Source of the DNA: Escherichia coli
GTDB lineage: Bacteria > Pseudomonadota > Gammaproteobacteria > Enterobacterales > Enterobacteriaceae
Strand: one strand, 5' to 3'
DNA length: 37,286 bases
Assembly (NCBI RefSeq): GCF_003334815.1
Contig: NZ_QOWO01000036.1
Part shown: positions 20,287 through 28,778 of the stretch, one piece after another
Position numbering within the stretch: the stretch's first letter is position 1
Layout: each line of letters begins with the position of its first letter
Made by a program: the position numbers and the translations under genes
The notes under the pieces: generated by a model
Databases searched by the model: none
The model's input: only the letters and a program-made list of their open reading frames with translations
Told to the model about the DNA's origin: nothing

Positions 20287-20517
20287 ATGTTTACGAAGGC
20301 GTTATCGGTTGTCTTATTAACGTGTGCTCTGTTTTCAGGACAACTCATGGCAGGGCACAAAGGACATGAATTTGTGTGGGTAAAGAATGTGGATCATCAG
20401 CTGCGTCATGAAGCGGACAGCGATGAATTGCGTGCTGTGGCGGAAGAGTCGGCGGAAGGTTTGCGCGAGCATTTTTACTGGCAAAAATCGCGCAAACCAG
20501 AAGCGGGACAACGTTGA
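20287..20517 (+). CDS. yncJ: Small secreted protein
   Basis: 76 aa, signal peptide MFTKALSVVLLTCALFSGQLMA; RBS AAAGGTGG upstream. Confidence 0.75.
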   Translation: MFTKALSVVLLTCALFSGQLMAGHKGHEFVWVKNVDHQLRHEADSDELRAVAEESAEGLREHFYWQKSRKPEAGQR

Positions 20518-23179: not shown

Positions 23180-23216
23180 GCGACTCCTCCGGCAAAACGG
23201 AAGTTTATCACTTGTG

Positions 23217-23258
23217 CGTTATAACGGACAAATGCTACGGTGCCTGTACGCTATAACG
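23217..23258. promoter_or_regulatory. Two copies of a palindromic 10-mer in the ydcN-ydcO divergent region (operator candidate)
   Basis: CGTTATAACG (23217-23226, perfect palindrome) and CGCTATAACG (23249-23258), 32 bp apart centre to centre. Confidence 0.35.
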
Positions 23259-23270
23259 CACGAGGTGACT

Positions 23271-24446: not shown

Positions 24447-26190
24447 CATCCTCCACGCCCTGAAGGACGTGGATCCCTGCTACGTTCAGGCTGTCGCCTG
24501 AATCATTTCGGTGGGTTCCTGCTTCAACGGGCGGCCTGACTGCACCATCTCTCCACAGGCAAGAACGGCGTGCCCCGCCGCTAAAATGTTGCGAGCGCCA
24601 TTTACATCGGCGTTCGCTGTATATCCACATACCTGGCATCTGAATTTACTTTGTGACAGGCGGTTCTCTTTCGCTGTATGACCACAGTACGCGCAACGCT
24701 GGCTTGTATACGCTGGCGGAACAGCAAGCACCTGACCGCCACGCCAGAGCTGCTTGTACGCAAGCTGGCGGCGCATTTCATACCAGCCCTGATCCAGTAT
24801 CGAACGGTTTAAACCTGATTTTGCCCGGACATTGCGCCCCGGCTGGCTGACCGTACCCGCTGCTGACTTTGACATGTTGCTGACCTTCAAATCCTCAATG
24901 ACTATCATTGCGTGGTTTTTGCTGACGGCCGTTGTGACTTTGTGAAGGTAGTCCCTGCGGATATTTGCGATACAGGAATGCAGTCGCTGTATTTTGCGTT
25001 TCTGCTTTTGCCAGTTGTTGCTGAATTTGACCTTGCGGCTTAACTGTCGCTGAAGTCTCGCCAGCTTCTTCTGGTTTTTCTGAAAACTGTTTACAGGCTC
25101 AAAGACTGTGCCATCTGACAGCGTGGCGAGTTTAGCCACGCCAGCATCCAGCCCGACCATTGATGCTGAAGGGTGAACCGGAGTTGATACTTCACTTTCT
25201 GTCTGAATACTGATGTACCACTTACCGCAGGACTGGCTGACAGTGACATTTTTCACAACACCCGTGACCTGACGGCTGTTCCGGTAGCGCATCCAGCCCA
25301 GTTTCGGCAGAAAAATACGGCTGTTTTCCTGATCGAGCTTAACGCCCTGCGGGTAGCGGAATGCATCATTCTGTCCCCGCTTTTTGAATCGGGGAAAAGC
25401 AGCCCGCTTCCGGAAGAAGTTTTTGTAAGCCCGCTCAAGGTCTTTCAGTGACTGTTGCAATGGCTGTGAGGGAGAATCTTTAAGCCATTGCGTTTCAGTG
25501 GCATTTTTCCACTCAACCAGCCAGGAAGCCATTTTCCCGTAAGGGATGTATTTATTACCGGCCTCATGATTCTCATTCTGACGTGCCAGAGCACGATTGA
25601 AAACGAAACGACATGCGCCTGCGAAGCGCCTCATTTCACACTCCTGTTGACCACCGGGTCTTAACTGGAATTTAAATGCCTGTAATCGTTTCACAGGTCA
25701 AATGATACTTTGGTCTGTGAAAAAAGAAACCGATATCCGGCGTGGAAGGCATTGTGTTTTCCTGATGCATGTTCACCTGCTCTTTGTCACCAGATACCGA
25801 CGCCAGATTTTTGACCATGACGCGACAGAAAAACTACGCACTTACTTTTCAAATGTATGTGCTGATTTTGAAGCTGAACTGGTTGAAATGGATGGCGAAC
25901 CAGATCACGTCCATTTGTTAATTAACTATCCTCCCAAACTGGCGATATCCAGTCTGGTAAACAGCCTCAAAGGCGTATCGGGTAGGTGACTGCGACGAGA
26001 TCGACCAGATATTGCATTCAGGTATTACTACAAAGGCGTTTTGTGGAGTCCTGGCTATTTTGCCAGTAGCTGCGGAGGTGCGCCAATATCCGTCATCCGC
26101 CAATACATTGAACAACAGCAAACACCTGGTCAGGTGGAAAACCGCGCCTTATATCCCCGCCCTGAAGGATGGGGTTTTACGGCGCACCGG
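24440..26190 (-). mobile_element. IS200/IS605-family insertion sequence (IS609-like), about 1.75 kb; boundaries approximate
   Basis: Divergent tnpB and tnpA; no terminal inverted repeats; subterminal hairpins at both ends share the 12-mer CGCCCTGAAGGA (24456-24467 and 26158-26169); sits between the ydcO stop and the ydcL terminator. Confidence 0.6.
24486..25694 (-). CDS. insQ: TnpB (IS609 OrfB; RuvC-like RNA-guided nuclease family)
   Basis: 402 aa from GTG 25694 (382 aa from ATG 25634, which has an AGGAG RBS). Conserved N-terminus [10 protein letters not shown]; RuvC-I GLDAGV, RuvC-II IEDL, zinc finger CAYCG...CQVCG, Ruv[13 protein letters not shown] all present. Confidence 0.8.
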
Positions 26191-26225: not shown

Positions 26226-26894
26226 CTACTTTTTGTTAACGTCAAACATGGTGGCATCGGTCGCCATGTCATCAATAACTTGTTTAATATTTTCGAAAGC
26301 CATTGGCGTACTTTCGTTATTCAGGTCTTTACCTTCGCCCTGACGAACGACTTTGATAACCGGTTTATTAGTCGCTGCATCAATCAGCTCACCTTCAAAA
26401 TAGAGGCGAGTATCCATGGTACGGTGGACTGTAGCCATTTGCGTCCCCGCAACCACTAATGCAACAGGAACCACTTCATAGAATTGCAGCCCTTCTTTGC
26501 TGGTATCTACACCGGTAATGGCCCCACGGAAAATCAGACTACGCGGCCCAGCGGTGGTAACCAGTGGTTTACGCTGCGCTATCGCTTCTTTCATTTCGGT
26601 GTTGGTATAGTTCAAAATTTTATCCAGAACTTTCTGCCCTACCTGGGTCGACGGTTTCGGTACCGGATAATAAGTGATTGGGTTCCAGACGATGCTGTCA
26701 TATTTGCTTTGATCAAAACTCGGGTCTACCCAACGTAAAACAGGTTTACCTGTAGCCGAGGTTGTTTCTTTTAAATCAGAGTAATTGTTTAAAAAACCAG
26801 AATATTTATCTGGCTGGGTGATTTTAGAGGCACAACCAGACAGAGCCAATAAGCCGCATAAAGCTGCAACTTTCGCAAATGATGTGGTACGCAT
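26226..26894 (-). CDS. ydcL: Lipoprotein
   Basis: 222 aa; signal peptide with lipobox (MRTTSFAKVAALCGLLALSGCAS). Confidence 0.85.
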   Translation of the reverse strand: MRTTSFAKVAALCGLLALSGCASKITQPDKYSGFLNNYSDLKETTSATGKPVLRWVDPSFDQSKYDSIVWNPITYYPVPKPSTQVGQKVLDKILNYTNTEMKEAIAQRKPLVTTAGPRSLIFRGAITGVDTSKEGLQFYEVVPVALVVAGTQMATVHRTMDTRLYFEGELIDAATNKPVIKVVRQGEGKDLNNESTPMAFENIKQVIDDMATDATMFDVNKK

Positions 26895-27195
26895 GAATAG
26901 TTTCCTGAGATGATTATATTACTTTCTAAGTTATAGCAAAAAGCGCCGCTTCGTGTTGTGGCAAAAAAAGTGTTGGTGAAAATAAATTTTTCAGCCCCTT
27001 TTCAGACGACATAGTCAATGCCGAAAAAGGGGCTAAGTCAATCATCAGTACTTAAATTTCAGTAAGTTAAGCTGCTAAAAACTTCGACTACTGTGATTAA
27101 TTTCACATCCCTTCGATAAAAAATATGCTTACCGAAAAGAAGAACAGTAAATCATCTCAGCGTGGGGAATTTTCACGCGTTTTGTGCTTACCGGG

Positions 27196-27789
27196 TCATT
27201 TTTTACGTGCCAGCATCGTGGCGAAACGCAGTTTAATACGATTACCGTTGGCGTCGGTGCGGTGCAGCTCGCCGACGTCTTCATTGTATTTCACCCTCTC
27301 CCAGCCTTCGTAATATCGACGTAATTCTCCCTCTTTGAAGGCAAACGGGAAGCCGACGGTACATGGATAATCAGCGGTATCCATCGCCGCCACAATCAGG
27401 TTGTAACCACCAGGTTTAGTGCAACGTTGCATATTGGCAATCAACCCGGGGATGGTTTTAGCCTCAAGGAACATCAGCACCACAGTCGAAAGAATAAAAT
27501 CGTACTGTCTATCAAATGTGAGGTTATTCAGATCAACGACTCGGGTGTGTAAATTATCCAGATTTTCAATGGATTTAATGCGCTCGACGTTGGCGATACT
27601 CATGGCATTTTTATCCCATGCGTCAACATCATAACCATTGGCTGCCAGGTAAAGACTGTTACGACCATTGCCACAGCCCAGATCCAGCGTTTTACCCGGT
27701 TTAACCACTTTCACCGCTTCCAGTACTTCAGAGTGTGTGCGGGTTAATTCATATTTATCAGTAAAATAGTTTTCGTCACGAATGATCAT
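27196..27789 (-). CDS. tehB: Tellurite resistance protein TehB (SAM-dependent methyltransferase)
   Basis: 197 aa; SAM-binding motif ([15 protein letters not shown]); start overlaps the tehA stop (ATGA). Confidence 0.9.
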
Positions 27790-28778
27790 TCTTTGTCCTC
27801 TGCTTTCATTAAAACGGCGCGCTCGGTTCTGACTAACAATTTTCCCTGCATCAGAAGCGCAAAAGTACGGATGAGCAGTATTGCAATAATAAAATTGGTA
27901 AAGATAAACAGCGGCACCGCCAGCGTATGGAAAAATCCATTATCGCTGCCACTCCCCAGATGCAAACCGGTGGTTGCCAGTGCAGATACGCCGAACGAGA
28001 AACTCCAGAATGAAGCATTAAATGGCTGGGAGAGATACCATGGCATCAGACGTAGCATAAACAGCAGTTGCAGCAGTCCATAACCGAAAAGCATTTTCGC
28101 CAGCGTGTCACCCTCGCCGCCGTTGACGCTCAGCCAGGCACTACAAGCCACCAGCGCAGGAGCGAGCTGAATGCCGAGTGATGTCCGCAGTGCCGTGGGT
28201 AATTCTCCCGAACTGCGCAGACGCTGCAAGATCACCGGTTCAAGGCTTAGCCATGAGAAAACGCCTGCGCCTAAAAACACCAGACCGGCGTCGGTGTAGC
28301 CCAACGCACCACAGGCCATTGCGCTGATAAAGTTGTTGGCAACTGTCGGCAGATACAGTCCAGGCGTGGTAGCTTCTTCAGGGTGAGATCCGCGCCATAA
28401 TCCCGCAGTTTGCCAGGCGGCATAAGCCAACTGAACCACGACACCAAAACTGAACAGGCACACCGCCAGTGGGCGAAACCACGGAACAAAACCAATCGCC
28501 ACCAGCATCGTCGTTGCCGGAAACAAACTCACAAAACTGCTCAGCACTGGATGGCGAACTTCCGCCAGCACGCTATGCGGAAAGCGTATGAGTCGGGCAA
28601 TAAATGCGCTAGTCAATAATCCCCAGATGATCATCGCCAGAATCACCAGCCCATCCCCTAACCAGTGGCTGACCTGCCAAACCTGGCTGGCATAGCGCCA
28701 GGCAAATCCCATCCCTATCGTCCCCAACACAATACCAAAGTAGCCTGCCGGCAAATTGAGCACTTTATCGCTCTGCAT
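27786..28778 (-). CDS. tehA: Tellurite resistance protein TehA (SLAC1/TDT-family membrane channel)
   Basis: ATG at 28778 giving 330 aa ([19 protein letters not shown]...), multi-pass membrane protein. The ORF track extends 36 codons upstream; an ATG at 28790 is also possible. Confidence 0.85.

Follow-up and report, generated by a model that had tools for sequence, protein, structure and literature searches.

A sense-strand RNA hairpin at a mapped transcript 3' end between tehB and ydcL of Escherichia coli

The tehB-ydcL spacer and its inverted repeat

The stretch of DNA analysed here (hereafter the window) comprises 37,286 nt of an E. coli contig, NZ_QOWO01000036.1. Taken as its reverse complement, positions 1447-37209 are 99.975% identical to E. 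coli K-12 MG1655, and the first 1446 bases (1-1446, on the rhsE side) have no alignment to that genome; the window thus derives from a K-12-like strain and not from MG1655 itself. We took gene positions from the RefSeq annotation of K-12 MG1655 (NC_000913.3), using the conversion K-12 coordinate = 1502155 + (27196 - window coordinate). In this annotation, tehA, tehB, the lipoprotein gene ydcL and insQ of IS609 all lie on the minus strand (Table 1), and tehB is separated from ydcL by a spacer of 301 nt (27195..26895). At the far end of the window lies the sokB antitoxin RNA (37134-37286; Rfam sok, 72 bits). Scanning with Rfam 15 at the gathering threshold returned only sok matches in the window, and a permissive scan of 26850-27250 gave nothing above 18.5 bits.

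An earlier, sequence-only reading of this DNA had drawn attention to a perfect 10-bp inverted repeat in the spacer. The repeat is real, AGCCCCTTTT being fully complementary to AAAAGGGGCT with 22 nt between them, and the K-12 annotation confirmed its placement between the tehB stop and the ydcL start (26894), with A/T runs on its flanks. Taken alone, such a repeat is not improbable: perfect 10-mer repeats with loops of 3-30 nt gave 9 overlapping hits in the whole window, corresponding to 5 distinct repeats, and dinucleotide shuffles of the window gave 1.4 +/- 1.3 hits, so that a lone 10-bp repeat in 37 kb is about what chance provides. What raises the tehB-ydcL repeat above chance is its folding z-score of -6.1, its conservation, its presence in seven Escherichia lineages and an RNA 3' end mapped at this site, all of which are described below.

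The window contains other perfect inverted repeats as well. One of 13 bp (12275-12309) lies between the convergent genes patD and yncL; a published 3'-end catalogue gives the yncL primary terminus at K-12 1517030-1517043, adjoining it (PMC10687069), and the repeat is probably a shared or bidirectional patD/yncL terminator. Another, of 10 bp (GTGCGTTATA-N28-TATAACGCAC, 23214-23261), is found in the divergent ydcO-sutR promoter region and could be a regulator binding site. Two further repeats (10-11 bp, loops 18-21 nt) fall inside coding sequence, in yncJ (20458-20498) and pqqU (7119-7156).

When the spacer was folded as minus-strand RNA, i.e., the sense strand of tehA, tehB and ydcL, the repeat became part of a larger hairpin of 46 nt. 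Its lower stem consists of 13 bp (27036-27024 with 27003-26991), in which UUAGCCCCUUUUU pairs with GAAAAGGGGCUGA around a GCCCC/GGGGC core. This stem is followed by a 3-nt bulge (UCU, 27006-27004), an upper stem of 6 bp (27023-27018 with 27012-27007, CGGCAU/AUGUCG) that includes one G.U pair, and an apical loop of 5 nt (UGACU, 27017-27013). The 22-nt loop of the sequence-only reading was thus an artefact of counting perfect Watson-Crick DNA pairs only. Predicted energies for the hairpin were -24.4 to -25.4 kcal/mol, at z = -5.1 to -6.1; 200 shuffles gave no fold as good. Folding of the plus strand was weaker (-16.7 kcal/mol, z = -3.7), because the antisense has C.A mismatches in place of three G.U pairs of the sense RNA. 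The same fold, at -25.4 kcal/mol, is printed in Supplementary Data 3 of Bar et al. 2023 (PMC10687069). Relative to tehB, the hairpin starts 160 nt downstream of the stop codon, and the element spans 160-206 nt past it.

Table 1. Features of the tehB-ydcL region, in window coordinates
Feature	Position	Strand	Basis or remark
tehA	28778..27786	minus	RefSeq K-12 annotation
tehB	27789..27196	minus	RefSeq K-12 annotation
tehB stop codon TGA	27196..27198	minus	
Complete 46-nt RNA hairpin	27036..26991 (K-12 NC_000913.3 1502315-1502360)	minus	folding
Right arm of the repeat, AAAAGGGGCT on the plus strand	27025..27034	.	5' arm of the RNA stem
Left arm of the repeat, AGCCCCTTTT on the plus strand	26993..27002	.	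3' arm of the RNA stem
Mapped RNA 3' terminus	26983..26992 (K-12 1502359-1502368, +)	minus	RNAtag-seq, two datasets (PMC10687069)
Tail AAAAUUUAUUUU	26979..26990	minus	after the extended stem
Conserved block upstream of ydcL, TTTTTTTGCCACAACA ... TTTGCTATAAC	26930..26969	minus	27 loci, about 15 genera
ydcL	26894..26226	minus	RefSeq K-12 annotation
IS609 insQ	25694..24486	minus	RefSeq K-12 annotation

Two further features of the spacer frame the hairpin. On its ydcL side, the motif pair TTTTTGCCACAACA ... TTTGCTATAAC keeps a fixed distance to the ydcL start codon in about 15 enterobacterial genera. The block that contains this pair would be the ydcL promoter and, as such, the downstream limit of the terminator zone. 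Within it, TGCTATAAC (26938-26930) looks like a sigma-S-like extended -10 element, and an RpoS genomic-SELEX peak has been reported between tehB and ydcL (PMC5493296). From the hairpin it is at least about 45 nt downstream to the -35-like ACAACA of this block, and some 58-114 bp to the inferred ydcL start site. On the tehB side, 55 bp upstream of the hairpin, the spacer carries a perfect CRP consensus, TGTGA-N6-TCACA (27092-27107; TGTGAAATTAATCACA, or TGTGATTAATTTCACA on the plus strand), which occurs once in the window, where chance would give 0.05, and is kept at all Escherichia loci with the long spacer. From this site it is 21 nt to a weak -10-like TTAACT on the minus strand; together the two would be arranged as in a class II promoter, and the start predicted from them is near 27058 (K-12 1502293). 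We found no report of CRP binding at 27092-27107 in the literature.

RNA 3' ends and the tail of the hairpin

Bar et al. 2023 mapped the 3' termini of E. coli MG1655 by RNAtag-seq (PMC10687069), and one of these termini falls at the foot of the hairpin. In their Supplementary Data 2 (sheet "E. coli - Barsheshet", LB exponential), it spans 1502359-1502367, with a dominant position of 1502365 and a signal of 0.94, and in Supplementary Data 3 (the authors' own samples) it spans 1502359-1502368, with a dominant position of 1502361 and a signal of 0.81; in each of the two datasets, the terminus was significant in 3/3 replicates (PMC10687069). The dominant ends correspond to window positions 26986 and 26990, respectively. 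The peak as a whole therefore lies about 1-9 nt beyond the extended stem, the dominant ends being 1 and 5 nt after it, and 1502365 is 7 nt past the last G-C pair of the stem. The catalogue rows that cover the spacer list neither another sense terminus between the tehB stop and the hairpin nor an antisense terminus in that stretch (PMC10687069). The supplements of Adams et al. 2021 eLife, and likewise those of the TERMITe and SMRT-Cappable-seq papers, contain no tehB or ydcL rows; these tables are possibly incomplete or thresholded.

The catalogue classes this terminus as premature, in the "5' UTR of ydcL" (PMC10687069). Under its rules, a 5' UTR is the stretch of at most 100 nt upstream of a start codon that has no known 5' UTR, and a primary terminus lies within 100 nt of a stop codon (PMC10687069). 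Since the label was assigned by these 100-nt distance rules, it is purely positional and can be corrected accordingly; the hairpin has in effect been present in a published 3'-end table, uninterpreted there.

The tail that follows the stem is unusual. The U-rich run begins 5 nt past the extended stem and 7 nt past the perfect arm, such that four to six A's stand between the stem and UUUAUUUU (AAAA counting from the extended stem, GAAAAA counting from the perfect arm). In full, the tail reads AAAAUUUAUUUUC when counted from the extended stem and GAAAAAUUUAUUUUC when counted from the perfect arm, the G in the latter being an A in most E. coli. The first 9 bases of the tail include only 2-4 U's. 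The TransTermHP-style tail score is -1.6 to -1.9, like that of random sequence, compared with -4.9 for the ydcL terminator, and it would be -4.65 if the same U-run abutted the stem. In a consensus terminator scan of the window, the tehB-ydcL hairpin was not called.

In other respects the hairpin resembles an intrinsic terminator: it is a stable sense stem-loop with a G+C-rich base in the transcribed-strand RNA, its apical loop is within the usual range of about 3-8 nt, it is positioned at the end of a transcription unit, past the stop codon and upstream of the conserved ydcL promoter block, and in vivo RNA 3' ends lie a few nt beyond the stem (PMC10687069), at about 7 nt past the last G-C pair. 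It differs from one in lacking a tract with 5 or more U in about 8 nt that begins 0-2 nt past the stem (the tail being GAAAAAUUUAUUUU / AAAAUUUAUUUU), in being long and bulged, and in standing 160 nt from the stop codon instead of within a few tens of nt. Because the A's separate the stem from UUUAUUUU, the canonical test fails, and the Escherichia hairpin is not a canonical terminator. The sequence-only reading had also called the repeat atypical for a terminator, on the ground of its long loop; this ground was wrong, as it is the tail that is atypical.

The hairpin equally has the attributes of a protective stem-loop of the kind found at Rho-dependent or processed ends, being stable, free of an adjacent U-tract and associated with 3' ends at or near the stem foot. 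Such protective stem-loops, described by Dar and Sorek in 2018, reportedly mark the trimmed ends of Rho-dependent transcripts. Where it may depart from them is in the short distance to the next gene's promoter and in its upstream 3' UTR, which is C-poor (C/G about 0.55) and would thus be a poor Rho-loading (rut) site, with no obvious rut; the 60 nt downstream of the hairpin are, for their part, C-rich and G-poor (C/G = 2.0). REP/BIME elements offer a further comparison: like them, the tehB-ydcL element is an intergenic palindrome downstream of a gene that could stabilise the upstream message, but unlike them, it is single-copy, has no REP consensus and is restricted to one locus and to Escherichia.

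Conservation in Escherichia and in other genera

We searched 5426 complete E. coli genomes with the 101-nt region around the hairpin. The region was present in 5407 of them, with coverage of at least 80% in 5405, and 5399 of the 5426 genomes carried it at an identity of at least 95%. It was found at a median of one place per genome across the 5407 genomes, and RefSeq annotates nothing over it in the complete E. coli genomes. As the hairpin is single-copy, a REP-like element or MITE was ruled out; an end hairpin of IS609 was likewise ruled out, IS609 lying beyond ydcL. Five of the about 5400 spacer matches were on plasmid-labelled records, which could be misassigned replicons or captured chromosomal segments.

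The hairpin, with its GCCCCUUUU/AAAAGGGGC stem, is kept in each of the seven lineages of Escherichia that we sampled, among them E. albertii, E. whittamii and cryptic clades. The heptamer ATTGACT, which occurs twice in the element, 26 bp apart, is invariant in Escherichia. Natural variants keep or improve the pairing, a G.U pair being replaced by A-U in NR329, a U-A pair by C-G in MOD1-EC7003 and a C-G pair by U.G in E69. Covariation within Escherichia was not significant, with one compensatory pair and 84 of 500 shuffles reaching the observed score; as judged from these alignments, the predicted structure is supported by conservation and not by covariation. The advantage of the sense strand in folding holds for E. 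coli proper and MOD1-EC7003; in the remaining Escherichia lineages, which have a different upper helix (UUGAC/GUCAG), it is slight or missing.

Two natural rearrangements affect the spacer. In Escherichia sp. MOD1-EC7003, the tehB-ydcL spacer is 174 nt long and lacks 127 nt that include the CRP site (L002:3092-3268, compared with window 27190-27062), with everything from GAAATTTA through the hairpin to ydcL retained. With spacers of about 283-302 nt in all other Escherichia, a deletion is the apparent cause. In E. coli ET210, IS1-family sequence (a complete copy plus a partial one) is inserted in the 3' arm (L082:2569-3590, at about window position 26995), with a target duplication of CTGAAAAGG(GG). 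This insertion is a natural knock-out of the hairpin, which is accordingly dispensable.

To look beyond the genus, we compared 80 tehB loci from other species, 27 of which keep tehB-ydcL synteny with a short spacer. At each of the 27 syntenic loci, a stable hairpin (-11 to -25 kcal/mol) was found in the stretch from tehB to the ydcL upstream block; for the most part, these hairpins are unrelated in sequence. Those of Yokenella, Trabulsiella, Atlantibacter and Pseudocitrobacter have 6-8 U in the 9 nt that follow and are, by sequence, predicted canonical terminators. In Citrobacter, Salmonella arizonae and Salmonella diarizonae, the hairpin has no U-tract, as in Escherichia. A short motif, TTCGGCAT, is common to the Citrobacter and Salmonella hairpins and the upper stem of E. 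coli, and the comparison suggests that the Escherichia hairpin may be an older hairpin enlarged by an outer GC/AU stem. A covariance model built from nine Escherichia hairpins (R1) and searched over 81 sources matched only in the Escherichia tehB-ydcL spacer, the Citrobacter and Salmonella hairpins going unrecognised; the grounds for wider homology are thus limited to position and the TTCGGCAT motif.

How the hairpin may act

Taken together, these results make it very likely that the hairpin acts as sense-strand RNA, setting and protecting the 3' end of a transcript shortly before the ydcL promoter. With moderate confidence, we also favour a more specific reading, namely that this is the 3' end of the tehAB transcript and that it is formed by non-canonical intrinsic termination. 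Here, the repeat would encode a stem-loop in the minus-strand RNA, and tehAB transcripts, which we infer to start at the tehA promoter, would pass a 160-nt 3' UTR, fold the hairpin of -25 kcal/mol and end within the next 1-9 nt. The GC-rich base of the stem, followed by the all-A/U stretch GAAAAAUUUAUUUU, would leave a weak RNA:DNA hybrid, such that the transcript would be released about 7 nt past the last G-C pair in a factor-independent manner, after which the stable hairpin would shield the 3' end from exonucleases. In this way the hairpin would mark the end of the tehAB message and insulate the separately promoted ydcL downstream. The 3' ends would then stem from termination and not from processing; we favour termination because of the all-A/U stretch, the end at 7 nt, the canonical terminators of relatives and the C-poor 3' UTR, and count against it the missing U-tract and a tail score like that of random sequence.

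The suggestion of the sequence-only reading that the repeat may be a tehAB terminator variant is therefore largely borne out: sense 3' ends 1-5 nt past the extended stem speak for it, as do the hairpins and canonical terminators of relatives, and the displacement of the U-tract speaks against it. The tehB-ydcL hairpin is essentially an ordinary end-of-operon hairpin with a displaced U-tract, for which the terminator idea was right once moved to the correct strand. On this reading, the tehAB operon gains a defined 3' end and a 3' UTR of about 206-210 nt, and the hairpin provides a natural example of a transcript-end structure whose U-tract is displaced by an A-run. With either canonical terminators or U-less hairpins at the same position in relatives, the locus also offers a small test case for the intrinsic versus the post-transcriptional share of termination.

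The main rival, which we consider rather unlikely, is that the hairpin is a protective 3'-end structure and not a terminator, polymerase reading through it or being stopped by Rho downstream. The mapped ends would then come from an RNase E cut in the A/U tail or from 3'-to-5' exonuclease trimming, with a tehAB fragment being stabilised. RNase E prefers RN↓WUU, which AA↓AUU just past the stem fits, and no U-tract is found next to the stem. Moreover, the 3' ends are found 1-5 nt beyond the extended stem, with a spread of 10 nt and, in one dataset, a dominant end only 1 nt past it, a pattern that is said (Dar and Sorek, 2018) to be typical of trimmed Rho-dependent transcripts. The C-rich, G-poor composition of the 60 nt past the hairpin points the same way, and the likewise U-less hairpins of Citrobacter and Salmonella hint that the element may not act by canonical termination. 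However, the C-poor 3' UTR upstream would be a poor rut site, the about 95 nt between the hairpin and the ydcL start codon leave little room for Rho, the other dominant end (1502365) follows the last G-C pair by the classical 7 nt, and related genera carry canonical intrinsic terminators at this very position. The ends could also belong to a different RNA, one that starts at a CRP-dependent intergenic promoter near 27058, about 20 nt upstream of the hairpin, and is ended or attenuated there. It would then be either a small RNA of ~70 nt under catabolite control or a ydcL leader that depends on CRP and is attenuated. We regard such a transcript as improbable. The perfect CRP consensus, its rarity and its conservation in long-spacer Escherichia are in its favour, and so are the predicted, exactly class II spacing to the -10-like hexamer and the conservation of the block from the predicted start to the hairpin, which is exactly what the MOD1-EC7003 spacer retains. 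The catalogue class of the 3' end, premature in the ydcL 5' UTR, would also agree (PMC10687069), and indirectly so would the joint increase of the proteins YdcL, RbsB and RbsK in a ptsG deletion strain (PMC9356451). Yet that class is positional only, the candidate -10 is weak (3/6) and not conserved in E. albertii or strain E69, a promoter scan found nothing on the minus strand of the spacer, MOD1-EC7003 has the hairpin without the CRP site, and the putative RNA matches no Rfam family and no RefSeq annotation.

The two remaining accounts dispense with the sense RNA. It is highly improbable that the repeat acts as double-stranded DNA, be it as an operator for a dimeric ydcL regulator or as a bidirectional or plus-strand element, although its arms do form a perfect 10-bp palindrome, the two ATTGACT copies are invariant, the RpoS SELEX peak falls in the spacer (PMC5493296) and a Shigella flexneri study lists an sRNA, 'Ssr15', on the opposite strand of the tehB-ydcL spacer, as a prediction only (PMC4782007). 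A gap of 22 bp between half-sites would be unusual for an operator, and the element is far from the inferred ydcL start site (roughly 58-114 bp upstream). In E. coli the additional, G.U-dependent helix exists only in the minus-strand RNA, and the recurrence of unrelated hairpin sequences at the same place in other genera fits a structural role. A function of the plus strand was rejected in view of its weaker fold, a tail with no U-run and the catalogue rows covering the spacer, which list no antisense 3' end at the site (PMC10687069). The proposal of the sequence-only reading that the repeat may be a protein-binding site in the ydcL promoter found no support, given its distance from the -35-like ACAACA, the strand-asymmetric G.U pairing and the absence of a match to a known operator. 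Finally, a functionless chance palindrome is barely credible. About one perfect 10-bp repeat with a loop of at most 30 nt is expected per 37 kb, covariation is not significant and one strain (ET210) carries IS1 in the 3' arm; but chance would leave unexplained a folding z-score of -6, the conservation of the element across the genus Escherichia, the RNA 3' end mapped at the hairpin foot and the recurrence of hairpins at the tehB-ydcL position in other genera.

Apart from the hairpin, the spacer contains several smaller elements. A 39-codon open reading frame runs across the hairpin in K-12 (27045..26926, minus strand, MIDLAPFSALTMSSEKGLKNLFSPTLFLPQHEAALFAIT); we rejected it as neither its start codon nor its frame is conserved, the ATG being ACG, AAG or ATA in other Escherichia and the frame carrying a 1-nt insertion in E. 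coli THO-010. A second hairpin, directly after the tehB stop (27178-27160), was considered as the tehAB terminator and dismissed: in the sense orientation it has a 9-nt loop and no U-run, and it is terminator-like only on the opposite strand. There, GCGTGGGGAATTTTCACGC followed by GTTTTGTGCTT (27160-27188, plus strand) abuts the tehB stop, a terminator-like arrangement that is not conserved in other Escherichia. It lies about 30 nt past a promoter-like element, TTCACA-16-TATGCT (27102-27129, plus strand, antisense to tehB), that most Escherichia have kept; the -35 of this element overlaps with the CRP site.
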